This document shows, one piece after another, positions 1 to 11,589 of a stretch of DNA of 11,589 bases (the stretch's first letter is position 1; each line of letters starts with the position of its first letter). Under the pieces are notes generated by a model. The model searched no databases. It had not been told where the DNA came from and saw only the letters and a program-made list of their open reading frames with translations. Position numbers and translations under genes: made by a program. Source of the stretch: Candidatus Heimdallarchaeota archaeon. GTDB taxonomy: Archaea > Asgardarchaeota > Heimdallarchaeia > Hodarchaeales > Hodarchaeaceae. Where the stretch lies: assembly GCA_019057635.1 (NCBI GenBank), contig DXJL01000142.1, forward strand, positions 1-11,589, written 5' to 3'.

Positions 1-191
1 TGTTGGAAAAGTATCTTTTTTTTATACTTGCTCCTCTGAATCTTTATCAATGTCACCAGTATAAAATTACCAAGCATTCTCCCTCTTCTTTTTTTTTTTC
101 CGATATTTACAGAAATTACATTTATTTAACCCAGAGTGTAAATGGAAACGTACCAACTTTCCCCTCAATCCAACTAATTTGGGTTTTTTCA

Positions 192-1109
192 ATGCCGTCC
201 GATATTTCTTACGAATTTATCCGCCGATTAGTGAAGTTTAGTGCAAGAATCGGATATCGATTAGAGGTTAAGGGCAGTGAGAATCTCACTAATCACTTAG
301 ATGGGTTGGGTGATGGTGTTATATTTGCTGCAAATCATGAAAGCGTCATTGATGCATTTTTAATGGGATTAATTGTTCCTCCAGAAATTTCTCGTGTTTT
401 TTTCCTGGGAAAACAATCCGCGTTATGGAGAAATCGAATTTGGGGGACAATGATGGATTATTTTGGCGTCATTCCAGTACAAAAACGAAATAACGATGAA
501 GCAATTCGGAGGGGTCTAGAGGTTCTTCAAAAAAACCAAGCTCTGGGAATCTTCCCTGAGGGACATATCCGTTATTCTCGTAAAAGTCTCGACGGGAAAG
601 TCGGTGTAGCTAGATTTTCTTTTGAAACGGAATCTCCTGTGGTGCCCGTTGGCATTGTGGGGACAGATGGGGTTCTTCCTTATGGGGGTAGTTGGCCATC
701 AGCTGGAAAGAAAGTCACCTTGACGGTCGGAGATCCAATCTATCTTTCATATGATTTCGATAAATCTGATATATACAGTTTAGGAGCATTACGACAAGCA
801 ACGGATCTGGTTATGCATAATATCCGAGTGTTAAGTTCAGGATATGGAGTTAATCCTCGTGATGTACCCAGTTTGAAAAGTATGAAAGGTGTTGACAAGA
901 TCCTGATACCACACCGCAGAATGAAAGTTCTTCATTCGCAACAGAGAATTCAACACCCGAAAAAAGATGTTGTAGATCAATTCACAGATTGGATGACGAC
1001 GTTTTCTGATGATTGGGAGAGAAATCCTGCAAATGAAGAAATTAGTAGGCCATTACCAAAAAAAGCAGCAAGTGATGAATTTTTAGCATGGTTAAACGAT
1101 CAATTATGA
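192..1109 (+). CDS. plsC: Lysophospholipid acyltransferase, PlsC/LPLAT family, with C-terminal extension
   Basis: Catalytic HX4D motif (NHESVID), F..GK block, IFPEG motif, GVARF, PVVPVGIVG. ATG at 192 (MPSDISYEF) is the likely start; the ORF-track extension from 3 runs through a poly-T tract and looks non-coding. Confidence 0.85.
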   Translation: MPSDISYEFIRRLVKFSARIGYRLEVKGSENLTNHLDGLGDGVIFAANHESVIDAFLMGLIVPPEISRVFFLGKQSALWRNRIWGTMMDYFGVIPVQKRNNDEAIRRGLEVLQKNQALGIFPEGHIRYSRKSLDGKVGVARFSFETESPVVPVGIVGTDGVLPYGGSWPSAGKKVTLTVGDPIYLSYDFDKSDIYSLGALRQATDLVMHNIRVLSSGYGVNPRDVPSLKSMKGVDKILIPHRRMKVLHSQQRIQHPKKDVVDQFTDWMTTFSDDWERNPANEEISRPLPKKAASDEFLAWLNDQL

Positions 1110-1134
1110 GTAATATAGGAAAGAACCAATGTTT

Positions 1135-2190
1135 TTACGAAGTGAATAGATCATCAATATGAGCTATGAGTAATCTAAACCCCACAAGAAGTGTTAAGTG
1201 ACCCCCAGGGTATCGATATAGTGGTTTTTGCAACATTCTAGCGAGCTTACTGACAAGATTGAACGGAACGATCCTATCATATATACCTCCGATGATTGCA
1301 GTATTTTGGTTGGTTGTATAGGGATGAAAATATTTTAGATTTGCAGAATAAAGAATCTTATAGTACGAGGCTAGTCCCAGTTCCTTATGCTGAAGGATTC
1401 CCCTATTAGCTATCGGGACAATATTTAATTTTGAAGCAAGTCCGAAGAGAAAAGGGCCGGCTAATGCAGTTATACAATCTATGTCAGCTACAAATTGTGA
1501 GGCTATAGCAACTAAATGACCTCCCAGAGAGACACCAAATAATATCACTCGCTCATAATTTTTCTTTAAATAGTTGACCAAGAATTGTATTTCAATGATT
1601 GACTGACGAAATGCTTCCAGCATTCGTACAGGGTTTCCATTTAGGAAGTATGCCCCTGAAAAAGGAGAATCATAAGGTACACGATGATGATGATACGGTA
1701 ACTCAAGAGCATAAATATCGCTTTTAAATTGATTGTACGTTAAACGAAAGTAAAATTGTTCATGAAAAATGAAGTGTGACTCTGCATACCCATGGATAAA
1801 AAGGAAAGCCGTTTTTTGATTCTTAACGTTCTTTCTTTGATATTTATGGACAATCAATTGTTTAATAGGATCAAATTTTGAATCACTAAATAATACGCCA
1901 GATTTTGGTTGGTACGGTGAATAAGCAGAGCCAATAGATTCACAAAACATTCCTCTCTTAACAGAATCTTTCCAAATAATGGTATTCTCGATTTTAGTAT
2001 CAAGCGCAAAGAACGTACGAGGATTTTTTTTGTAATACGGCAAATATTTTTGAATAAGGTTTTGTGTGGGCTGAAAATCTTCAATATATCCGTTATTTCG
2101 GTATTGAAAATAATTAATGACTGGATATTCAAGCAAATCAGAGGGAACAAAATGGATAGTTTTGACTAACCGCTTAAAAGTCGCATTCAA
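1135..2190 (-). CDS. Alpha/beta hydrolase (serine esterase/lipase), ABHD18/DUF2048-like
   Basis: FIHGY oxyanion region, LELPYHHHRVP..SG, nucleophile elbow GVSLGG, acid in YDRIVP, His in YPGGH. TTG start. Subfamily assigned from remembered motif pattern only. Confidence 0.8.
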   Translation of the reverse strand: MNATFKRLVKTIHFVPSDLLEYPVINYFQYRNNGYIEDFQPTQNLIQKYLPYYKKNPRTFFALDTKIENTIIWKDSVKRGMFCESIGSAYSPYQPKSGVLFSDSKFDPIKQLIVHKYQRKNVKNQKTAFLFIHGYAESHFIFHEQFYFRLTYNQFKSDIYALELPYHHHRVPYDSPFSGAYFLNGNPVRMLEAFRQSIIEIQFLVNYLKKNYERVILFGVSLGGHLVAIASQFVADIDCITALAGPFLFGLASKLNIVPIANRGILQHKELGLASYYKILYSANLKYFHPYTTNQNTAIIGGIYDRIVPFNLVSKLARMLQKPLYRYPGGHLTLLVGFRLLIAHIDDLFTS

Positions 2191-2211
2191 ATAGATCTGC
2201 CCCTTGATATG

Positions 2212-2219
2212 TTTATAAA
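2212..2219 (-). promoter_or_regulatory. Putative archaeal TATA box for the hydrolase (near-leaderless transcript)
   Basis: TTTATAAA ending 21 nt upstream of the TTG at 2190. The AT-rich background lowers specificity. Confidence 0.4.
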
Positions 2220-2316
2220 TCCTAGGAATTGCAGATTTAAAAAACTAGTATTATTGCTCAGAAATAGAAATGAAGATCAGTGATAATCCAAGTATGTCTA
2301 GAGAAATTATCACTTG

Positions 2317-3204
2317 CTAGAAAAGATGTTTACTGTTATTTTTTAGAAAAGTACCATTACGATATTCTTCAAAGGCAATACGCAATTCTTCTTGGGTATT
2401 CATAACAATAGGACCTGCCCAAGCTATAGGTTCATTTATTGGTTTACCAGAAATTAACAGGAAACGTAATTTATCGTCCTCACTTGCGGTGACTTGAATT
2501 CTATCCCCTTTTCGATTATAAATGACTAAATTGTCCATGTCAAAGTACTTGTCGCTATCTGGAGCGAATTTACCTTTTCCTTTGAAAGTATAAGCAAAAG
2601 CGGTATGTCCATCTTTCAGAGTGTGCTTAAAAGTTTGGCCTGATGGAATTTCAACCTCAAGATATTGGGGTTCAGTAATGATATCTTTTACTGGTCCTTT
2701 AGTCTTATTATATTCCCCCGCGAGTACCCGAATTTTTACACCATCCTCTAATACAATTTTAGGTACTTTTGAAGCGGTAATATCTTGATATCTAGGATCT
2801 ATTAATTTATGAGATTTTGGGAGGTTTACCCACAGCTGGAAACCAGCTAATTTTCCCTCTGATACCTGGGGCATTTCTTGATGAATAATTCCTCCACCTG
2901 CTGTCATCCATTGAATATCTCCACCGTTTAGAATGCCTGAGTTCCCAATACTATCTTCATGTTTGACAAGGCCCTCTAACATGTATGTTACAGTTTCAAT
3001 TCCCCTATGAGGATGCCATGGAAATCCAGCCATGTAATCGTCTGGGTTTTCGGATCCAAACGCATCGAGTAATAAAAATGGATCCAAGAGACTAGTTTCT
3101 TGATGACTAAAGACACGTTTAAGTTTAACTCCGGCTCCATCCGTTGTTGGAAAGCTGGATTGGGTTCGATGGATAGTTCGAATATTACTCATAATAGAAG
3201 TCAT
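2317..3204 (-). CDS. Pirin family protein (Fe-binding bicupin)
   Basis: DPFLLLD, GFPWHPHRGIETVTY, WMTAGGGIIHQE, FQLWVNLP, GPIVMNT: all canonical pirin motifs, including the His/His/His/Glu metal ligands. Confidence 0.95.
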   Translation of the reverse strand: MTSIMSNIRTIHRTQSSFPTTDGAGVKLKRVFSHQETSLLDPFLLLDAFGSENPDDYMAGFPWHPHRGIETVTYMLEGLVKHEDSIGNSGILNGGDIQWMTAGGGIIHQEMPQVSEGKLAGFQLWVNLPKSHKLIDPRYQDITASKVPKIVLEDGVKIRVLAGEYNKTKGPVKDIITEPQYLEVEIPSGQTFKHTLKDGHTAFAYTFKGKGKFAPDSDKYFDMDNLVIYNRKGDRIQVTASEDDKLRFLLISGKPINEPIAWAGPIVMNTQEELRIAFEEYRNGTFLKNNSKHLF

Positions 3205-3333
3205 TAAAGGATATCATTTAAGCATAGTTATGAAAAAATCACATTTGCCGATCTAAAATATCCAGAAAAAGGAGAGATTTCACTAATGATTGTTGTTATT
3301 TAATTCATACATACCATTCCATCTGGCATGTTG

Positions 3334-3360
3334 AAAAAAGCTCTCTGACCTCTCAGAGAG
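3334..3360 (-). terminator. Stem-loop plus U6 tract downstream of the histone gene
   Basis: Minus strand reads CTCTCTGA-GAGG-TCAGAGAG-C-TTTTTT: perfect 8-bp stem, 4-nt loop, then a T run, 39 nt after the histone stop. Confidence 0.65.
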
Positions 3361-3399
3361 TCAGTAAATGAATAAATAAAATGTGCAGAACTACTATTC

Positions 3400-3675
3400 T
3401 CACATTTTAGAGGCTGCGAGTCTGATGTCATCATTTTTAACTGTTTTACGTCCAGAGTTATTACAAATCTCGACGGCATATTTCGACAATTTCAAACTAT
3501 ACTCGGTAAGTTCTGTATTAAGTGCACCGACTGCATCTGCTGAAACACGGAATGCGCCTGCATCACGGATCAATCGTTCCACTCTTGCACTTGCAAATCC
3601 GCCAGCTCCAGAGCTTGATTTCTTTGCTGGTGCTGCTTTTTTAGCGGGTTTTTTGACTACTTTTTTCTTTGCCAT
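3400..3675 (-). CDS. Archaeal histone (HMf-like fold) with ~26-aa Lys-rich N-terminal tail
   Basis: RLIRDAGAFRVS and GRKTVKNDDIRLA align by eye to HMfB RIIKDAGAERVS and GRKTIKAEDIELA (R10, G16, R19, R52-K53-T54, D59 and L62 equivalents kept). Preceded by MAKKKVVKKPAKKAAPAKKSSSGAGG. Confidence 0.95.
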   Translation of the reverse strand: MAKKKVVKKPAKKAAPAKKSSSGAGGFASARVERLIRDAGAFRVSADAVGALNTELTEYSLKLSKYAVEICNNSGRKTVKNDDIRLAASKM

Positions 3676-3743
3676 TTTTTTCAGATTCCTTTTATTTTAT
3701 CATCAGGTAACTTGACGTGAGTTCTACATAAGGAACTATACCC

Positions 3744-3751
3744 TTTAAAAA
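3744..3751 (-). promoter_or_regulatory. Putative TATA box of the histone gene
   Basis: Minus strand GGAATAAG-TTTTTAAA (purine-rich BRE-like stretch then TATA-like box) about 70 nt upstream of the ATG; AAGGA SD-like element at 3687-3691. Confidence 0.45.
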
Positions 3752-4025
3752 CTTATTCCATCAGATGACGAATGATGAAGAAAGCTAACCCATGAAAAGA
3801 CTCATCTGAGTGTACATGAACAAGGAGAAATATAGCTAGAGGAGGGAAGATAGATCTTTCACATATTTATGAAAAAGAGCAAAAGCTGACACTAGTACTA
3901 CTTGGTTATGACCAATCACAATATCAAATACAAGAGTAACAATTTTACGTATTCCTGCATCAACTCAAAGAAGAATTAAAGATGATACAAATGTACCGAT
4001 TCTATCTGAAGTAAAAGCTGGAATA

Positions 4026-4100
4026 AGTCATGTGATGGGAAGATGCTCTGTTACTAGTCATTTAATGGGAAGTAATTTGTCACTAAAACATTAAATGGGT
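4026..4100. repeat. Three imperfect direct repeats with an exact 30-bp period, core CAT-N3-ATGGG
   Basis: AGTCATGTGATGGGAAG (4026), AGTCATTTAATGGGAAG (4056), AAACATTAAATGGGT (4086). Units 1 and 2 match at 15 of 17 positions. Confidence 0.7.
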
Positions 4101-4202
4101 ATTAGATTTAGAATAAGCGTATTTTCACTGACTTTAGTGCTTTTGTTCTCTAGGAAAATGACATAAAGCATTCTTAGTCGTTTTAAATTGAGGAATATTC
4201 TG

Positions 4203-5078
4203 TTGAAAATCACCTCTCATTCTAACATTAACGAATATAGTGATCATGTTCTACCCTTCTTACTAAAGCATGAAGCAGAAAATAACTTGCTCATCGGCAT
4301 ATTGAATACCTTGAGACAAGATTTTCACGCCTATAGTAAAGAAGAGAATCCGATATTCATTTCCGTGGAGAATGAAGGAGGTAAATTAAAGCTGGTTTCT
4401 ATTCGTACTCCTCCTTTTAATCAACTTATTTCTTATACAGACAACTTGGATACAATTGATATCCTTGTTAAGGAACTAATCAAAAAACAAATGGATATTC
4501 CAGGAGTTTTAGGATTTAAAGAAGGTACTTTGAGATTTGCCCAAATATGGGGAGAAGGTCAAGACCAGGATTACTTTTTAGAAACTCATGAACGAATATA
4601 TAGACTAGATACCGTAAATCCAGAGACATTAGGGGAAAATATATTCGAATTGGCAACTGCAGATGATAAAGAGATCATTCTTAAAATGGGAAAAGAATTT
4701 TTATTCGAAACCCTTCCCGAAGGATCAACTGAACCAGCACATATCGAATCTTCTCAACGAAGAATGGAACAAGGATTACAAAACCAGATGGTTTATGTTC
4801 TGAAGGTTAATGGGAAAATTGTTTCGATGGTAAAAAGAGCTCATGTGACACCGAATGGGCAGACAGTAAATGCAGTCTATACTCCTCCGAATGAACGTAG
4901 AAAGGGATACGCTACAGAAGTGGTGGCCAAATTGAGTCAGAAAATTCTCTCCGAAGGAAAAAAGTATTGTTTCTTATTTACTGACCTAGCAAATCCAACC
5001 TCAAACAAGATCTATCAGACAATCGGCTATCGACCAGTAACGGACATGGATTTATATCGCTTTCAAAGCAGGAAATAG
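4203..5078 (+). CDS. GNAT family N-acetyltransferase (two-domain, FR47-like C-terminal domain)
   Basis: Acetyl-CoA motif VYTPPNERRKGYA, LFTDLANPTSNKIYQTIGY, N-terminal EAENNLLIG. TTG at 4203 follows GAGGA (4190-4194) and is preferred over TTG at 4188. Confidence 0.9.
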   Translation: MKITSHSNINEYSDHVLPFLLKHEAENNLLIGILNTLRQDFHAYSKEENPIFISVENEGGKLKLVSIRTPPFNQLISYTDNLDTIDILVKELIKKQMDIPGVLGFKEGTLRFAQIWGEGQDQDYFLETHERIYRLDTVNPETLGENIFELATADDKEIILKMGKEFLFETLPEGSTEPAHIESSQRRMEQGLQNQMVYVLKVNGKIVSMVKRAHVTPNGQTVNAVYTPPNERRKGYATEVVAKLSQKILSEGKKYCFLFTDLANPTSNKIYQTIGYRPVTDMDLYRFQSRK

Positions 5079-5312
5079 TTTGCAAAAGAAAAAAAGTGCC
5101 AGAACTGTGGTGGAGCATATATAGTCTATATTCCTAACAACTTTTTCGAAAGAGAAGAACATATGACCATGAAATACCCTTATTGTCGGTTTTCGTTGTT
5201 CATGATAATAGAAGATGGACAATTAATTGCGGAATCAGACACAAGCCCGTGCCTGAGAAAATTTCCTAAAAAGCAGATAAACACACAACCTTGGGTAGAA
5301 TTGCTGAAATAA
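5079..5312 (+). pseudogene. Start-less 77-codon Zn-ribbon-like frame, in frame after the GNAT TAG (frameshifted gene, remnant or readthrough extension)
   Basis: Manual translation: FAKEKKCQNCGGAYIVYIPNNFFEREEHMTMKYPYCRFSLFMIIEDGQLIAESDTSPCLRKFPKKQINTQPWVELLK*. CxxC plus degenerate YPYC knuckle. Absent from the ORF track. Confidence 0.5.
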
Positions 5313-5507
5313 ACATCAATAATTACTTTTATTTAGATGTTTTAGCTATTACTCCCTTTTGTAAACTTACGACTTTCGTAGTTCAAATTTTCTTTAACTG
5401 AGGGATTTACGTAACTGTTTAAGTAAATCTATAAGTTAATCTTCCATGATAATGTATTTAGATATATACCCAAGTATAAACCTAAAATTCAAGGAAGTAG
5501 ATAAATA

Positions 5508-5714
5508 ATGAAAACGCTTGAAGAGCTGGAAAAGGAAAACATTACCCAAAGAACGAACTGTTGGTGGTGTGGAACAATCTTTAAGAGAGGATCAATATGG
5601 AGTGATTCGAATAAGCATGGAATCGCGCTATTAGGAAAAAGTGAAAAACAACTGGTTTTTCTCCATTGTAATGATTGTGGTAATGATACCTCTTTAACCA
5701 AGTGGATTTCCTAG
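5508..5714 (+). CDS. Small Zn-ribbon protein (68 aa)
   Basis: CWWCG...CNDCG pairs; ATG with upstream AAGGA. Confidence 0.7.
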   Translation: MKTLEELEKENITQRTNCWWCGTIFKRGSIWSDSNKHGIALLGKSEKQLVFLHCNDCGNDTSLTKWIS

Positions 5715-6078
5715 AAATATGAATTAGGGAAGGAGACTTAATAAATTTTAAGAAGCTAGCAATACCAATCAGTAAATTTTTTTTTGCTCCTTCTTTTATG
5801 GATTCTTGAACTTGATCCTCAACGGTATAAGCCGTCATCATCATTACAGATGTTAAAGGAGAAATTTTCTTGATTCTCTTGTAGGTTTCCACCCCGTTCA
5901 TGTGAGGCGTTTTAATATCCATGAAAATCAGTGTAAAGTATTGATTCTTAACCTTGTCAATAGCTTCCAGTCCATTTTTGGCTGTAGTAACAGTAAATCC
6001 TTTGTGTTTCAGAATGAAAAACAGGGTCTTGGTTAGGTTTATATTATCATCCACAATCAAGATTGAATTGTTTTTCAT
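5581..6078 (-). pseudogene. CheY-like receiver domain, 3'-truncated/degenerate
   Basis: ILIVDD, phosphoacceptor FMDIK, MMTAY and strong SD AGGAGGAGGGGTGAC. Homology stops at EGA (~5787) in an A run; I found no KP motif in any frame there, and the tail overlaps the convergent Zn-ribbon gene by 134 nt. Confidence 0.7.
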
Positions 6079-6093
6079 GTCACCCCTCCTCCT

Positions 6094-6204
6094 TTACGTG
6101 GACAGTAATCTAATCATGAAAGTTCTACCTATTCCCAGCTCATAATGCATTTGGATGTTTCCTCCATACCTCTCTACACGACTTTTGGATACATCTAAAT
6201 CAGG
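6094..6204 (-). pseudogene. Remnant of a histidine kinase HATPase C-terminus
   Basis: Manual translation PDLDVSKSRVERYGGNIQMHYELGIGRTFMIRLLST* resembles the consensus GLGLxxSKxxVExHGGxIxxxSExGxGTTFxIxLP. It ends just before the receiver SD; no upstream kinase body. Confidence 0.65.
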
Positions 6205-6494
6205 AATTCTTACTACAGTTCTAGTAATGTCAAACACAATGAATTCTGCGTTTCATCTGAATTAAGAGAATGGAAAGAAAAGAGTAAAGTTTTGTCAAAG
6301 AATAGATAATAAAATCTACTATTTTTCTTTATTATTTCTGATAATTTATTTTTCTCCCTTTGAGCTAATTTGGAATTTGATTGTGAAAGGATAACCCAAG
6401 GCCAATATGTCAAGACTTAGTAAAGGTAAATTCAGTGTTTTGCTATAGAGGGAGAACTTTTTATTTTATGCATAGTTACACCCGTTGATATTTA

Positions 6495-7943
6495 ATGAGA
6501 CAAGATTCTCTCGCCTCTGAGCTTATTTCTGTTTTAGACGCTATGGTCGATCCAGTTCACGTCATAGATCGAAATCTCAAATTTATTTTCTTCAATGATG
6601 CATTTAAAAAATGGAATGCTCACTTAGGGTATAAAACCCAAGTTATAGGTGAAAAATTAACTGATGTTTTCCCCTTCCTAGCAGCTCGACCATTAGCTGA
6701 GTATGAATACATTTTCAAGACAGGAAAAGCAATGGCTATTCCTGAAAGGATAAATTATAGTCGAGAAGGCGTTTATAATATCCAACGAATCCCAATACTC
6801 GATGAAATTTCTTGTGAAGTAACTCACATTGTTACAATCTTACGCGATATCACTCAAAATGTAACAATTCTGGAAGCTCTCAAAGAATCCGAAAGAAAAT
6901 ATCGTTCGCTGATACAAACGATGGGAGAGGGTGTATGGGTAACGGATAAACTGGATAGGACAATTTTGGTTAATGCAACACTGCTAAATATGTTGGGTTA
7001 TACAGAGGGAGAATTACTAGGGAGAACTGTTACAGAATTCATAAGTCCTGAATATTTAGATATTTTTAAGGAAGTCCGTGAACAACGGTTATCAGAAAAG
7101 GTTGCTGCTTCCACATATGAATTAGTGTTTATAACGAAGAATGGCTTAACGGTTCATACTCGTGTGGCTGGTACAGCTTTATACAATGCAGAGAATAATG
7201 AATTGATCGGTTCAGTTGGAGTCATATCTGATATTTCTGCGGAGAAAAGATTTCAGCAACTTCAAGAACGTTTCATAGGAGTTACGGCTCACGAATTAAG
7301 AACACCTTTAGCAATTATTTCTGGTTACTTAGAACTTCTTCAAAAAGACCCCTCAAATACACAGGAGCATCAAGAAATATACGATGCTATGTTTAATAAT
7401 GCAAGTCGATTGCAACAGCTAATACAGTCAGTACACGATCTTACAGCAATAAAAGCAAATGTTTTCACCGTCAACCCGACTAAAACGAATCTGAATGAAT
7501 TTGTAAACCGATTTAAAATGCAAATTAAAATGCTTTACCCAGATCGTTTACTAATCATTGACGAACAGAATATTAACAATCAAATTGAGATTCTGATTGA
7601 CACCGATAGGATTACCCAAGTTCTTGAAAATCTTGTAGATAATGCTGCTAAAAATTCCCCAAGTAACAGCCTAATTTCGATCGTTGTAAGTCATTTAGAG
7701 AATTCCCTTCATGTCATGGTACAAGATGAAGGAACGGGAATCTCTAATCAAGTTTTATTTCAATTGTTCCAACCTTTTTCCCATATTCCAACTGAATATT
7801 CCCGAAGAGGAACAGGGCTTGGACTTTACATAGTTAAATCAATAATATCTGCTCATAATGGTACTATGAGTGTCATAACCCAAGAAAATAAGGGTAGCTG
7901 TTTTACTTTTACCATTCCGAGCAAAAATGAAAACAATGCCTAA
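6495..7943 (+). CDS. Soluble PAS-PAS sensor histidine kinase (HisKA + HATPase_c)
   Basis: Two PAS/PAC units ending RDIT and SDIS, H-box AHELRTPL, N-box ENLVDNAAK, G1 DEGTGI, F-box LFQPF, G2 GTGLGL. No transmembrane helix. Confidence 0.95.
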   Translation: MRQDSLASELISVLDAMVDPVHVIDRNLKFIFFNDAFKKWNAHLGYKTQVIGEKLTDVFPFLAARPLAEYEYIFKTGKAMAIPERINYSREGVYNIQRIPILDEISCEVTHIVTILRDITQNVTILEALKESERKYRSLIQTMGEGVWVTDKLDRTILVNATLLNMLGYTEGELLGRTVTEFISPEYLDIFKEVREQRLSEKVAASTYELVFITKNGLTVHTRVAGTALYNAENNELIGSVGVISDISAEKRFQQLQERFIGVTAHELRTPLAIISGYLELLQKDPSNTQEHQEIYDAMFNNASRLQQLIQSVHDLTAIKANVFTVNPTKTNLNEFVNRFKMQIKMLYPDRLLIIDEQNINNQIEILIDTDRITQVLENLVDNAAKNSPSNSLISIVVSHLENSLHVMVQDEGTGISNQVLFQLFQPFSHIPTEYSRRGTGLGLYIVKSIISAHNGTMSVITQENKGSCFTFTIPSKNENNA

Positions 7944-7952
7944 AAAAAGTAT

Positions 7953-8831
7953 TCATATTGCTTGAATCAGGAAATCCAAGACTTTTTTCCTGTATTCAGG
8001 AAGGTACTCATGGTTAAAATGTGTACCATCTTCAGGAACCCAAAGAGTGGAATTCGTAATGTGTGAATTTAATTCATAGGAATATTTGTAAGGAAATATT
8101 GCATCATGTTTCCCATGAATGATTAGAGTTGGGACATCAATCTTAGGAGCAATGTCAATTGGACTGTATTCACCTTTGCGAAATCTTCTGAACACTCTTA
8201 AGGTAGCAAATCTGACTCCTGGGATCAGAATTGGAGTAAACATTTTGAGTGCAGGTTTGTAAACATATTTCAAACTGAATGGGAAAGCATAAGGAGGAGA
8301 TTCAGCGATAATTGCTTTTACTTGAGGATTCTGCGCTCCTGCTAACAAGGCTGCACCTCCTCCTATTGAATGACCACATAATACTACAGGTTGGTTCCAC
8401 CACTTTATGCAGGCCTTCAAGTCTTGAGTGAATCGTATTATACTCATTCCAAGTAATTCTTTATCAGATCCTCCGTGATCACGGGCAGAAAAAAGGATAG
8501 TAGTATATCCCTGTTCCCCATAAATTTTTGCTCGTGCAACCATTCGTCCCCTATTACGTCCCCAACCGTGAAGAAGGACAATTGCAGGAAGTTTATTAGA
8601 TAATCCATTCTTAATAGCTAAATTTTTGTTTGGTCTGACCACCCAGCATTCTAGCAGTTTGTTATTTACAGTAGGAATTCGATGTTCCTCTATCGTACCC
8701 CAATCGGGAGAATCTGATATTGGATCTCTGGGAAATTTTGCTAATACAAGCATAATGATCAAACAACCACCTAGATAAATAACTAACCCAATACTAAATA
8801 TCACAAGCAATTGGAAGAGTAGTTCAAACAC
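7953..8831 (-). CDS. Membrane-anchored alpha/beta hydrolase
   Basis: Hydrophobic N-terminal helix, LLHGWG, SARDHGGS, GHSIGG nucleophile, IIHGKHD, GTH. GTG start with GGAGAG upstream. Confidence 0.9.
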   Translation of the reverse strand: MFELLFQLLVIFSIGLVIYLGGCLIIMLVLAKFPRDPISDSPDWGTIEEHRIPTVNNKLLECWVVRPNKNLAIKNGLSNKLPAIVLLHGWGRNRGRMVARAKIYGEQGYTTILFSARDHGGSDKELLGMSIIRFTQDLKACIKWWNQPVVLCGHSIGGGAALLAGAQNPQVKAIIAESPPYAFPFSLKYVYKPALKMFTPILIPGVRFATLRVFRRFRKGEYSPIDIAPKIDVPTLIIHGKHDAIFPYKYSYELNSHITNSTLWVPEDGTHFNHEYLPEYRKKVLDFLIQAI

Positions 8832-9013
8832 CTGTCAAGACTCTCCAAAGATAATTTGTTGGGAACAAAAATCTCTTCTAATTAACAATCTTTCAACAAT
8901 CCTTTATATTTCATTCTTGAAACTAAGTTATAAATTAATTAATAATGAATAATCGTATTTCTATAGAGTAACTGGTTGGAGTTTAATACAAATCAAATAG
9001 ATGAGGATTAAAC

Positions 9014-9592
9014 ATGAGTGACAAAACTGAATATGAATATTGCCGATTATGTGGTTATGTACGACGAGTGGGAAAAGGAGAAATATGTCCTGCATGTGGA
9101 GCACGAGAAAAAGCTTTTCTACCTTATGAACATAAAGCCTCAGAACAAAGACGCATGTTTCTCAAGCTCGATGTTCATCCAGTGTCTGTTCACTTTACTA
9201 TTAGTTATATAGCTGTTATCGCACTACTGTATATCATATCCATATTTTCCTCCGAACTGCTGGGAATATCTATTGACGGGACAAGGGATTTACAAATAAT
9301 CTTTTTCCCTCTTCTAGTTATTGGAGGAGGAATTACAGGAATCATTGATGGGAAAGTACGGTTTAGGAAACTAACTACTCCGTATCTGCAAAGAAAGATC
9401 ATATTAGGAAGTGTTCTCTTTGTTATATCTGTTCTAATCTTATTCATCCATAATCTTGAGGTTACAGACGGGATAACTGGTTTACTCGAAGGTCTTCTGA
9501 TCTTTTCTGCTTTTGGAATAGCAAGTTACCTTGGTTGGATTGGAGCAGAGATGATCTGTCCAATTGTTCCTGTTGGAAGACCGAAAGAGTAG
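9014..9592 (+). CDS. Rubredoxin-like Cys4 domain fused to a DUF2231-like 4-TM membrane domain
   Basis: YCRLCGYV...CPACGA...F, then HPVSVHF and four hydrophobic segments; GAGGA SD. Confidence 0.8.
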   Translation: MSDKTEYEYCRLCGYVRRVGKGEICPACGAREKAFLPYEHKASEQRRMFLKLDVHPVSVHFTISYIAVIALLYIISIFSSELLGISIDGTRDLQIIFFPLLVIGGGITGIIDGKVRFRKLTTPYLQRKIILGSVLFVISVLILFIHNLEVTDGITGLLEGLLIFSAFGIASYLGWIGAEMICPIVPVGRPKE

Positions 9593-9683
9593 TATAATTC
9601 AAAGGCTACCTCTGAAATTCGATGTCTCAACCTTAAGAACAGCCTATATTTCGTTTTATACAAACGAAAAGATGGAATTAATG

Positions 9684-9830
9684 ATGTCTACAAGAAATCG
9701 TCAATATAAACTAACCTGTTCATCCTGTGGAAAACAACAAGGCACCTGTTTTGCCTACTGTGTCGTTTGTGGAACAAAACTTGTTCCAAGGTCTCATGAT
9801 GTAAATCACTCACATCTATCAAAAGGGTAA
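9684..9830 (+). CDS. Small zinc-ribbon protein (~48 aa)
   Basis: CSSCG-x9-CVVCGTKL. Plausible ATGs at 9672, 9681 and 9684 rather than the overlapping start at 9564. Stop lies 1 nt from the convergent kinase stop. Confidence 0.6.
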   Translation: MSTRNRQYKLTCSSCGKQQGTCFAYCVVCGTKLVPRSHDVNHSHLSKG

Positions 9831-9831
9831 T

Positions 9832-11346
9832 TTATTCATCACAATTGGGAAGCTTAATAGTAAAAATACAACCAGTGTTTTCTTCACCGCTAACAACCTC
9901 AATGGTGCCTCCATGGGCTTGAATGATAACTTTGATGATATAAAGACCCAAACCAGTTCCACTCTGAGAATATTGGGTCGGCTTATGAGCGAAAGGTCGG
10001 AATAATTGAAGCATACCCTCATTAGAAATCCCTGTTCCTTGATCTTGAACGACTATAGACAATTCGTCAGATTTACTGAGAATTCGAATATTAATCGGTG
10101 AATCTTTAGGTGAATTTTTCACAGAATTTTGAGTTAAATTCTCAACAGTTTGTTTAATTCTTTCACTATCCATGTTAAAAGATAAATTTGAGTCTGAAGT
10201 AACATTAGTATCCCAGAATATATTTCGAGTTGGAAAAAGAATTGCTATTTGATCTTTTATTTCATTAATGAACTCAAATAAGTTTACATCTTTACGATCA
10301 ATGGTAAACAGATTCGTTCGGACGGCGGATAGATCATGTACATTTCTAACTAATCTCACCAGTCGATTTACATTACGAGACATTTTCTCAATAATGGCAA
10401 GGAGATCTTCTTGAGAAAGATCAGGACCAATTTGTAAAACATCAATGTAGCCACTTAGGACAGTTAATGGAGTTCGAAGTTCGTGGGCTGTAGTTGCAAT
10501 AAAACGTTCTTGCAACTCCTGAAGTGATTTTTCTTGTGTGATATCCGAGATAACACAAAAATTTCCAACTACTTGATTATCTGCATTTGTAAGTGAGGAT
10601 AGAATTAATCTTGTCTCTACATCCACACCCGATTTATTTAAAAAAGTAATTTCAGTGGGATTTGAAGTTGATTGAGTATCTAGTGATAGTAAAACTTTGT
10701 TAAATTTGTCGTGGGATGTTGCAACCATAAAATCAGTAATTATATTGCCAATGAGCTCACTTTCTGAAAATCTCAACATTTGACACAAAGCTTTGTTGAT
10801 GAAAATAGCTTTTTGAGATGAATCAAAGAGCCAAACTCCGTCTGCCATTTGAGCAATTAACTTTCTAAATTTATCTTCACTTTCACGAAGAGCTTTCATC
10901 ATGCTTTCGTATTTCTTTTCGATATACATAATTTTTTTAGAAATTTTTTCATCATTTGATTGATACTTGATGATTGTGGTCACTAAATTAGGATTTTTTG
11001 TCTTTATCGTTGGTATTTTATGAATAGTATAGACAGTGGGATCCTTATGGAAGGTATCAACTCTTTCAATTAGTGATTCTTGAGAATTAAAGACCTTTCT
11101 ATAATCGCCTATCCAAGCGTCGGTTATGAAAGGGATAGCCTCTGTAATATGTTGATCTTTACCTGGGGGTGGTAATTCCCAACTATTCATCAAACGTACG
11201 AGTGCTTCATTAAAAAACTGGATTTTCAAATTAGTATCTACTACAAAGAGTGGGTCTGAGATTAAACTAAATGCCTGAAAAAGTTGCCTAACTTGACTCA
11301 CATCACTTTGTCTGATGTCAGTATTTGTAGTTATGATTTTAGGCAT
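9832..11346 (-). CDS. Soluble PAS-PAS sensor histidine kinase, paralog of 6495-7943
   Basis: Two PAS units, LQERFIATTAHELRTPL, ENLTQNSVKNSP, DQGTGI, LFRPF, GTGLGLYI. Confidence 0.95.
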   Translation of the reverse strand: MPKIITTNTDIRQSDVSQVRQLFQAFSLISDPLFVVDTNLKIQFFNEALVRLMNSWELPPPGKDQHITEAIPFITDAWIGDYRKVFNSQESLIERVDTFHKDPTVYTIHKIPTIKTKNPNLVTTIIKYQSNDEKISKKIMYIEKKYESMMKALRESEDKFRKLIAQMADGVWLFDSSQKAIFINKALCQMLRFSESELIGNIITDFMVATSHDKFNKVLLSLDTQSTSNPTEITFLNKSGVDVETRLILSSLTNADNQVVGNFCVISDITQEKSLQELQERFIATTAHELRTPLTVLSGYIDVLQIGPDLSQEDLLAIIEKMSRNVNRLVRLVRNVHDLSAVRTNLFTIDRKDVNLFEFINEIKDQIAILFPTRNIFWDTNVTSDSNLSFNMDSERIKQTVENLTQNSVKNSPKDSPINIRILSKSDELSIVVQDQGTGISNEGMLQLFRPFAHKPTQYSQSGTGLGLYIIKVIIQAHGGTIEVVSGEENTGCIFTIKLPNCDE

Positions 11347-11468
11347 ATAATCCCAATCCTTTCTTCATTAAAGTGGAATTTATAATTTTTTATTGCATAT
11401 TAGTAATTTGGAATTAAAAAGATGACATTTGTATGCAATCTTTTAAAAGAAATTTCAGAGGTTTTAAA

Positions 11469-11588
11469 TTATTTTTGTATTTTTACCATAGCCTTCTTAG
11501 TAGCTTGAAGAGGTTCATCCACCATATATTCTTGAGATGCTTTCCATTTTCCACTTGTGAAATCAAAATTTTCTGGATAAAAACAATA
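11469..11588 (-). CDS. 3' end of an unidentified gene entering from the window edge
   Basis: Open frame YCFYPENFDFTSGKWKASQEYMVDEPLQATKKAMVKIQK* running from the window edge. Confidence 0.55.
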   Translation of the reverse strand, partial: YCFYPENFDFTSGKWKASQEYMVDEPLQATKKAMVKIQK

Positions 11589-11589
11589 A

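Follow-up and report, generated by a model that had tools for sequence, protein, structure and literature searches.

Tailed histones of Hodarchaeales and the gene in the window

Histones with N-terminal tails have been described from several Asgard archaea. Such tails were reported and modelled for the Heimdall/Hodarchaeales group in 2018 (Henneman et al. 2018, PMC6136690) and analysed again in 2024 (Hocher and Warnecke, PMC10919886), and the main text of a 2026 preprint (Cho et al. 2026, 10.64898/2026.07.02.735847) describes two tailed families, HMpB in Hodarchaeales and HLoB in Loki, with tails of 16–32 amino acids (aa) and more than 30% Lys. According to the same text, these histones rank with the proteins of highest abundance, HLoB co-localises with DNA, residues K3, K4, K5 and K9 of the HMpB.1 tail are methylated in a cultured Hodarchaeales strain, and tail peptides are acetylated by LoHAT2 and deacetylated by LoSIR2b in vitro. 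Here we describe a gene for such a histone in an 11,589-nucleotide (nt) stretch of a Candidatus Heimdallarchaeota archaeon genome (GCA_019057635.1, contig DXJL01000142.1, positions 1 to 11,589 of the forward strand), the whole of which we call the window. The initial annotation of the window had treated Lys-rich archaeal tails as merely predicted, which understates a class now characterised further by abundance, methylation and in vitro acetylation. The window gene adds a clean example with a well-supported start to this already published class and is not a discovery. Three points go slightly beyond the published texts: a match to the tails of linker histone H1, the loss of a histidine at the dimer-dimer interface, and the adjacency of GNAT acetyltransferase genes. 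Our overall reading, which we consider probable, is that of a long-tailed nucleosomal histone whose lysine arm binds DNA dynamically and is tuned by modification.

The gene and the parts of its product are located as follows.

3400..3675, minus strand: tailed-histone gene P0001, 91 aa, stop codon included (list of open reading frames (ORFs) and translation; PF00808)
3619..3675, minus strand: basic module of the tail, residues 1–19 (MAKKKVVKKPAKKAAPAKK), with 9 Lys, no Arg and no acidic residue; predicted local distance difference test score (pLDDT) below 50
3598..3618, minus strand: Ser/Gly hinge of the tail, residues 20–26 (SSSGAGG), from the translation
3403..3597, minus strand: histone fold, residues 27–91, from the AlphaFold2 model and PDB relatives
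3457..3462, minus strand: codons for Asn72-Asn73 at the dimer-dimer interface, the counterpart of HHoB Arg50-His51 (HMfB His49), from the alignment to 9qv5/9qv6 ('cnn' versus 'arh')

The 91-aa protein starts MAKKKVVKKPAKKAAPAKKSSSGAGG, and the segment singled out by the initial annotation (3598–3675) corresponds to codons 1–26. Lysines occupy positions 3, 4, 5, 8, 9, 12, 13, 18 and 19 of the tail, PAKK units lie at residues 10–13 and 16–19, SSS at 20–22 and GAGG at 23–26; every detail that had been given of the tail (9 Lys among residues 1–19, repeated PAKK, a Ser triplet and a Gly hinge) was seen in the translation. At the background Lys frequency, which is 6.6% of the 2,945 residues in the window's nine other long ORFs, at least 9 Lys per 18 residues has a binomial probability of 6e-7. 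Searched alone against Pfam, the tail matched zero families.

The remainder of the protein is a canonical histone fold, as the initial annotation had proposed. PF00808 (archaeal histone / CBF-NFY) covers residues 29–87 (E 7.6e-13, 49 bits; cut-off 21.4), and PF00125 (core histone) matches residues 8–88 more weakly, at 28.4 bits, barely over its cut-off of 26.4. An AlphaFold2 model built on 42 relatives contains helices at residues 29–38, 46–74 and 81–90 in the order short, long, short, with pLDDT of ~90 over residues 31–90 and no extra helix beyond the histone fold. The 26-residue tail ahead of this fold is disordered in the model, with residues 1–8, 10–16 and 18–23 at pLDDT below 50. The nearest solved structures are PDB 9qv6 (E 4.2e-21) and 9qv5 (E 1.1e-20), followed by HPhA, HMfA and HMfB. 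The GRKT loop and the helix-1 arginines are kept, since sGRKTvk and aRVErlIR align to 9qv6 and 1ku5, and G75, R76, K77, T78, R31 and R37 are invariant across the 42 relatives. The GRKT loop and helix-1 arginines would contact DNA, as in HMfB.

The window histone agrees closely with the HMpB/HLoB description, with a disordered tail of 26 aa and 34.6% Lys on a fold of the nucleosomal cluster, and it belongs to the Hodarchaeales tailed clade in a fold-only tree that was built without the HMpB.1 sequence. Like HMpB (Ca. Margulisarchaeum peptidiphilum HC1) and HLoB (Ca. Lokiarchaeum ossiferum) as described in the preprint's main text, it joins a nucleosomal-type fold to a disordered Lys-rich N-terminal tail and represents one tailed family alongside several tail-less paralogues, and it has KKK at about the same N-terminal position as HMpB.1 (K3–K5; MAKKK in the window). 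Unlike those proteins, it comes from a different species and is known from the gene alone. A motif taken from the published HMpB.1 peptide was not found among the best 120 of 233 protein-database matches or the loci, and an apparent match in P0022 was set aside as coincidence. We have hardly any doubt that the window gene is a genuine HMpB-class tailed histone.

The tail is also comparable to that of HA/HHoA from Hodarchaeales LC_3, as reported in PMC6136690, in being N-terminal and Lys-containing, and HA carries H49N at the interface position. Unlike the window tail, which has no Arg and ends in a Ser/Gly hinge, the reported HA tail contains R17–R19 and was likened to that of H4. A metagenome locus (L081:2935-3201, plus strand) encodes a histone of the same fold type with a 23-aa Arg-rich, partly acidic tail (MEEYNESIPEPRVPRRRARQKYG), which may be of the LC_3 HA-like type; this gene adjoins an Hsp20 gene and a gene for ribosomal protein L16/L10e.

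Start, conservation and composition of the tail

The start codon of the tailed histone is well supported. An in-frame stop lies at 3697–3699, 8 codons before the ATG at 3675, which is the first start codon downstream of that stop, and no in-frame ATG occurs between the start of the tail and the fold. Apart from this ATG, the frame offers a single start-type codon ahead of the end of helix 1, namely a GTG at Val32 within that helix, and a start there is disfavoured because F27, A28, A30 and R31, invariant in the 42 aligned relatives, would all be lost. The initial annotation had allowed for a true start downstream of the tail; with the upstream stop, the lack of an alternative ATG and the improbable Val32, this did not prove to be the case. 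In 10 other long-tailed loci, an in-frame stop likewise stands just 1–3 codons ahead of Met-(Ala/Pro)-Lys-Lys-Lys.

Codon comparisons indicate that the tail is translated and under purifying selection. Against five close orthologues, the ratios of synonymous to non-synonymous changes in the tail codons were 6:1, 6:2, 3:2, 5:2 and 3:2, and all tail insertions and deletions were of whole codons. AAA/AAG-rich leaders are common in AT-rich genomes, so a Lys-rich stretch could in principle be an untranslated leader annotated as a tail by mistake. Besides the absence of a plausible downstream start, this explanation is opposed by the conservation of the frame, start motif and in-frame insertions and deletions over 69 sequences, by a Shine-Dalgarno-like motif ahead of ATG 3675, and by mass-spectrometric evidence for tail peptides of the class in a cultured relative, as the main text of the preprint reports (10.64898/2026.07.02.735847). 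We consider an annotation artefact scarcely credible.

The tail is conserved as a class among relatives, which the initial annotation had proposed to examine by alignment. A protein-database search gave 233 matches, and the first ~50 among the best 120 are 84–98 aa long and start with M-[AP]-KKK. The relatives bear the labels Hodarchaeales, Hodarchaeota, Heimdallarchaeota or Promethearchaeota, which places the host among the Asgard archaea, in the Hodarchaeales. When database matches were pooled with genome and metagenome loci, 69 distinct long-tailed sequences were obtained, with tails of 14–35 aa (median 23). Their composition without Met1 is 35.9% Lys, 21.8% Ala, 9.3% Ser, 8.8% Pro and 8.3% Gly; Arg occurs in 3 of the 69 tails, and 66 start with M-[APSVT]-KKK. 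The two-module layout of the window tail recurs, the basic part containing 48% Lys, 25% Ala and 12% Pro and the last 7 residues 26% Gly, 24% Ser, 15% Ala and 9.5% Thr. Two candidates were left out of this set. L015 (bacterial Oscillospiraceae, E 2e-4), one of 5 loci from a scan of genome contigs, aligned to no more than tail residues 10–35 and was dismissed as a low-complexity match. L044 satisfied the numerical definition of a long tail, but it has an internal M-A-G start without M-x-KKK and groups with tail-less histones, and it was assigned to the controls.

In a fold-only maximum-likelihood tree (167 rows, 155 of them different; 64 columns), a branch supported at 99/89 separates the 69 long-tailed rows, together with one that has a truncated 11-aa tail, from the rest. 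The tail thus defines a clade of paralogues; a single origin is likely and not proven, because the tree is unrooted and has few columns. Across an even sample of Asgard genomes, close relatives (E ≤ 1e-18) were found in 24 of 351 (21/21 within the genus as defined by GTDB). K/P/A-rich tails are also seen on more distant cluster representatives such as P0246 and P0279. A phylum-wide search with P0246 reached 23 of the 351 genomes at E ≤ 1e-12, all Hodarchaeales loci already known, and returned no Loki families.

Tail length and interior vary by whole K/A/P units even among orthologues that are 88–96% identical. Such fast shifts are what one would expect if the tail were a generic, lineage-wide polyanion tether or a near-neutral low-complexity expansion with no histone-specific or regulatory role, which might have as much affinity for RNA or polyphosphate as for DNA; an H1-like bacterial protein, AlgP of Pseudomonas, has been linked to polyphosphate granules (PMC9239181). 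Several observations argue against this explanation, including the M-x-KKK start in 66 of 69 sequences, the clade-wide two-module layout, the retention of the tail in no fewer than 69 distinct sequences of one clade and the excess of synonymous changes. In addition, the main text of Cho et al. reports site-specific KKK methylation in a relative and the co-localisation of HLoB with DNA (10.64898/2026.07.02.735847). On this evidence, we think a generic tether very unlikely.

The composition of the window tail is close to that of H1 C-terminal tails. It contains 34.6% Lys, 23.1% Ala and 7.7% Pro with zero Arg, and the means published for 94 H1 C-terminal tails are 34.6% Lys (standard deviation (sd) 4.2), 24.0% Ala (sd 4.1) and 10.6% Pro (sd 1.7) (PMC11331069). 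Since the window tail matches these means, the remark in the initial annotation that it is H1 C-terminal-like and unlike a Gly/Lys/Arg tail holds. The same paper describes H1 tails as lysine/alanine/proline copolymers that condense DNA electrostatically, and the window tail, likewise a disordered copolymer with few acidic residues, would probably bind DNA by weak electrostatic contacts. Unlike the window protein, which bears a 26-aa N-terminal tail on a histone fold, H1 has a winged-helix globular domain and a C-terminal tail several times longer. A whole-protein Pfam search at E ≤ 1 gave histone-fold families only, without a linker-histone globular domain. The window protein is not a member of the H1 family, evidence of common descent was not found, and the likeness is a functional analogy only.

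The initial annotation also suggested that the tail may act as a built-in linker-DNA binder, which is an inference only. Archaeal hypernucleosomes are not known to have a defined linker.

Descent is a separate matter from analogy, and the tail might be thought homologous to a eukaryotic histone tail or to the H1 C-terminal domain, as its direct evolutionary precursor. No archaea are known to be more closely related to eukaryotes than Hodarchaeales (10.1101/2025.05.24.653377, PMC10919886), the composition equals that of H1 tails, and PF00125 extends into the tail, matching residues 8–88 at the marginal score given above. Set against this are the missing H1 globular domain, the restriction of the clade to one genus-level group (the 24 of 351 genomes) and the ease with which such compositions converge, as the similar tails of bacterial HupB and HupS illustrate. 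The 2024 analysis found no discernible homology between Asgard and eukaryotic tails, which differ in tri- and tetramer content (PMC10919886). A direct precursor thus appears highly improbable.

Interface change, acetyltransferase neighbours and proposed role

The closest solved structure to the window histone, HHoB from Hodarchaeales LC3 (PDB 9QV5/9QV6/9QV7), has the same fold. Unlike the window histone, HHoB is tail-less, and its Arg50-His51 pair corresponds to Asn72-Asn73. The HHoB preprint (bioRxiv 10.1101/2025.05.24.653377) lists Y44, E47, I48, H51, R54, D61 and K68 as dimer-dimer residues and attributes to His51 a contribution to both closed and open interfaces. Six of these seven are identical in the window histone (Y66, E69, I70, R76, D83 and K90); the exception is His51, replaced by Asn73, and the preceding Arg is replaced by Asn72. 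The histidine of the HMf-type four-helix-bundle interface (HMfB His49, HHoB His51), on which stable tetramers and hypernucleosomes depend, is accordingly an Asn in the window. At position 73, the 69 long-tailed sequences have Asn in 50, His in 18 and Glu in one, compared with His in 90 of 90 tail-less or short-tailed sequences, and position 72 is basic in 2 of 69 versus 78 of 90. Within the clade, the tail goes together with the loss of the interface histidine, an observation slightly beyond the published texts. The loss makes it less probable that the protein forms stable hypernucleosomes and would leave its identity as a histone intact.

These differences bear on an alternative in which the tail is a steric or entropic modulator of assembly and not a DNA arm. 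Together with the His-to-Asn change, it would stop or loosen hypernucleosome growth as a capstone, and it might enforce heterodimers with tail-less paralogues. The replacement of the interface His by Asn in 50 of 69 long-tailed sequences and in 0 of 90 others, accompanied by the loss of the preceding basic residue, is consistent with such a role, as is the presence in the host genome of one tailed copy versus seven other histone genes. Published work points the same way: H49N in the tailed LC_3 histone HA was predicted to weaken the dimer-dimer interface (Henneman et al. 2018, PMC6136690), other variants have been suggested to serve as capstones or roadblocks, with room for tails in open assemblies (HHoB preprint, 10.1101/2025.05.24.653377), and tails can disfavour homodimers (PMC10919886). 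However, a +9 lysine-only, H1-like polycation beside DNA is unlikely to avoid it, and the histidine is kept in 18 of the 69 tailed relatives, so the tail and the interface change are separable. The capstone explanation is also compatible with a DNA-binding arm and does not exclude it. As a substitute for such an arm, we regard it as unlikely.

Gene order around tailed histones suggests a candidate for tail modification. In the window, a GNAT gene is transcribed divergently from the histone gene, and GNAT genes recur beside other long-tailed histones. We compared the nearest ORFs of at least 90 aa around histone genes from genomes and metagenomes, in 23 distinct long-tailed loci after duplicates were merged and in 42 control loci, whose histones are tail-less, short-tailed or of other kinds. 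The scan of the control loci covered 66 neighbour ORFs. Altogether, 110 of the 188 listed neighbour ORFs were scanned, the other 78, which were left out, belonging to distant non-Asgard loci (L083–L130). The arrangements were as follows.

4188..5078, plus strand, in the window: divergent GNAT gene, 296 aa, 512 nt from the histone start, a candidate tail-modifying enzyme (Pfam FR47, GNAT_acetyltran, Acetyltransf_1)
L016, L011, L017, L018, L019, L051 (6 loci): GNAT-296 family, divergent upstream
L012, L013, L014, L023, L024, L025, L028, L056, L065 (9 loci): Eis-like GNAT directly upstream, same strand
L022, L064 (2 loci): Eis-like GNAT upstream with a small ORF (111–114 aa) between, a zinc-ribbon by Pfam in L022
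L052 (1 locus): Eis-like GNAT, convergent downstream
L021, L057, L026, L054, L055 (5 loci): GNAT not seen

A GNAT gene was a neighbour in 18 of the 23 long-tailed loci versus 2 of the 42 controls (L060 and L082), and an Eis-like gene adjoins the histone or lies one gene away in 12 of the 23. As a baseline, a GNAT of the PF00583 type is the nearest neighbour of 55 of 2,926 ORFs (1.9%) in the host genome. Searches by tblastn with either linked GNAT gave matches confined to long-tailed loci. Of the loci without a GNAT, L057 has 1.7 kb of upstream flank, and L026, L054 and L055 have less than 700 nt.

The two linked enzymes differ in family. GNAT-296 remains next to the histone gene in all six loci (6 of 6) of the nearest histone subclade, where the histone fold is 91–95% identical and the GNAT down to 60%; the L051 copy aligns over residues 2–244 only and gave no Pfam match. 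GNAT-296 is part of a large Asgard family (1,444 matches). The Eis-like protein, of ~423 aa, combines Acetyltransf_9, Acetyltransf_17 and SCP2_2, has weak PDB matches (2i00, 3n7z and Eis 3sxn), and is distantly similar to solved Eis (E 8.7e-4), its activity being predicted from sequence only. Because no BLAST similarity was found between them, GNAT-296 and the Eis-like protein as one relocated family was ruled out. A complex prediction with the GNAT-296 alignment and histone residues 1–45 (score 0.02, mark 0.32) speaks neither for nor against an interaction. Co-transcription is not implied by the adjacency, since the histone keeps its own TATA-like element. The linkage was seen in one Hodarchaeales group only, as the P0246 scan gave no independent tailed lineage.

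A bacterial precedent exists for this pairing. In mycobacteria, the lysine-repeat tail of HU/HupB is acetylated at multiple sites by Eis, with a loss of DNA affinity, and in Streptomyces HupS the modification is removed by a sirtuin (PMC6135046, PMC11229371). Long-tailed histones resemble HupB/MtHU and HupS in being prokaryotic chromatin proteins with a disordered Lys-repeat tail, and an Eis-like gene lies near many of them. They differ in having a histone fold in place of the HU fold and a tail that is not C-terminal, as it is in HU, and the window's own GNAT neighbour is of a family other than the Eis-like one. Neither the H1-like composition nor the GNAT linkage is brought up in the main text of Cho et al. 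2026, supplements aside, from which the terms Eis, synteny, adjacent and operon are absent, and acetyltransferase and GNAT are absent from the available text of the 2024 review (PMC10919886); a literature search on Hodarchaeales, histone, acetyltransferase and tail found only the 2026 preprint. The GNAT linkage is the only part of our results that may be new.

The suggestion of the initial annotation that the tail may be a modification platform is backed for the class by the methylation and in vitro acetylation of the preprint; for the window protein, the GNAT linkage lends circumstantial support. A more specific proposal is that tailed histone and GNAT form a selected writer-substrate gene pair in Hodarchaeales, dedicated to lysine-tail acetylation that tunes DNA binding, with the Eis-like GNAT in most lineages and GNAT-296 in the window's subclade. 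We put this forward tentatively and hold it to be possible, if doubtful. If true, it would parallel in archaea the action of Eis on the mycobacterial HU tail and would represent a genomically encoded precursor of histone-tail acetylation, read from gene order. A functional linkage would also name candidate tail modifiers that otherwise have to be picked among ~30 GNAT genes per genome.

Combining these observations, we propose the following role for the window histone. The fold would dimerise with itself, probably also with tail-less paralogues, and wrap DNA as HHoB and HMfB do. The small-residue Ser/Gly hinge would give the tail a way out of the histone-DNA core, comparable to the path through a minor groove that was modelled for the LC_3 tail (PMC6136690). 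Like H1 tails, the +9 lysine-only arm could then contact DNA phosphates weakly and dynamically, in cis or in trans. The DNA bound might belong to a neighbouring gyre, to flanking DNA or to a separate duplex, and such contacts would contribute charge neutralisation as well as compaction or bridging. Tail lysines, chiefly those of the near-invariant N-terminal KKK, would be methylated and possibly acetylated, which would tune binding, with the neighbouring GNAT as candidate writer. With Asn in place of the interface His and of the preceding Arg, contacts between dimers are probably weaker, and the tailed histone may accordingly be located at hypernucleosome ends or breaks.

Several points weigh against the reading of the tail as a modifiable DNA-binding arm. 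For the window protein, DNA binding by the tail, its exit path and its modification are extrapolated from relatives. At 26 aa, the tail is short compared with ~100 for H1 tails. It is also not genus-wide: among the 22 genomes of the GTDB genus (host genome counted), 15 have a long-tailed copy, and the best match is short-tailed or tail-less in the other 7. The 2024 analysis considers that Asgard tails are maybe easily gained or lost and non-homologous to eukaryotic ones (PMC10919886). The main text of Cho et al. records in vivo tail acetylation once only, and in its molecular dynamics simulations modifications barely affect hypernucleosomes (10.64898/2026.07.02.735847). As to the linkage, the relatedness of the genomes reduces the 18 loci to about four arrangements in place of 18 independent events, and no GNAT lies within 1.5 kb in L021, which has full flanks. 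The Eis-like gene is also located away from histones in four genomes with a long-tailed histone (G002, G004, G018 and G020), occurs in three genomes without one (G001, G013 and G016), and has no orthologue in the host genome at E ≤ 1e-10.

Expression signals, host histones and neighbouring genes

The sequences flanking the histone gene contain candidate signals for its expression.

3741..3754, minus strand: AAGTTTTTAAAGGG block, a likely archaeal TFB-recognition element (BRE)/TATA element ~70 nt 5' of the ATG, identical in 6 of 6 close orthologous loci
3717..3722, minus strand: ACTCAC, ~25 nt past the TATA-like block, a likely transcription start region, kept in 6 of 6 orthologous loci
3685..3693, minus strand: Shine-Dalgarno-like AAAAGGAAT, with GGA 11 nt 5' of the ATG, assigned by motif position
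3334..3360, minus strand: terminator-like hairpin of 8 pairs with a loop of 4, then CTTTTTT, ~40 nt past the stop codon, from a sequence scan

More distant histone loci have TTTATAAAG at a distance equal to that of AAGTTTTTAAAGGG, and tail-less paralogues have GAGAAAAGGTGA at the position equivalent to AAAAGGAAT. Three terminator-like sites were found in the region, compared with 0.4 expected from shuffles. These putative signals fit a monocistronic histone gene with its own promoter. ACTCAC also occurs 30–45 nt 5' of the start codons, after a TATA-like box, in the paralogues L005, L032, L035, L038 and L045, and the recurrent motif is possibly a shared transcription start region or the site of a common regulator. 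The presumed leader further contains an out-of-frame mini-ORF of four codons (ATG ATA AAA TAA; 3692–3703, minus strand). It is present in L019, L017 keeps the ATG in a frame of six codons, and it is absent in L018, L011 and L051; being altered or absent in relatives, it is probably meaningless.

The host genome (3.19 Mb, 91.6% complete) has ten PF00808 matches in nine genes, comprising one long-tailed histone, six tail-less histones (~67–72 aa), one doublet and one 366-aa protein. The doublet has two folds in one ~141-aa frame (G000:C131:2307-2714, minus strand; loci L003/L008) and matches a Hodarchaeales doublet histone mentioned in PMC10919886. The 366-aa protein (G000:C183, L010:1456-2553, plus strand) begins with a histone fold (PF00808 E 6.2e-8, residues 16–74), followed by a long region without a Pfam family and the C-terminal end KKPTKKKKRKKSRKRRK.

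Putative writers and erasers in the host genome include 32 PF00583 matches, 2 SIR2 genes and 3 HDAC-type genes, and no SET-domain methyltransferase was found in this 91.6%-complete assembly. One HDAC-family gene (C152:35863-36720, plus strand) lies ~3 kb from a divergent histone gene (C152:39638-39826, minus strand), and a SIR2 gene directly adjoins a GNAT gene (C157:21555-21806, plus strand, and C157:22042-22569, minus strand).

One tail-less paralogue has a recurrent context of its own, with an N6_N4_Mtase DNA methylase upstream and an opposite-strand single-domain response regulator downstream. This context and the other genes of the window are listed below.

L030, L049, L059, L063: tail-less paralogue context, both flanks; L044, L058: methylase
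5581–6078, minus strand: response-regulator receiver gene
6495–7943, plus strand, and 9832–11346, minus strand: PAS-HisKA-HATPase sensor kinase genes

The response-regulator receiver gene and the two kinase genes occupy the right half of the window, and the left half contains genes for a pirin, two alpha/beta hydrolases and an acyltransferase; all of these are ordinary genes.

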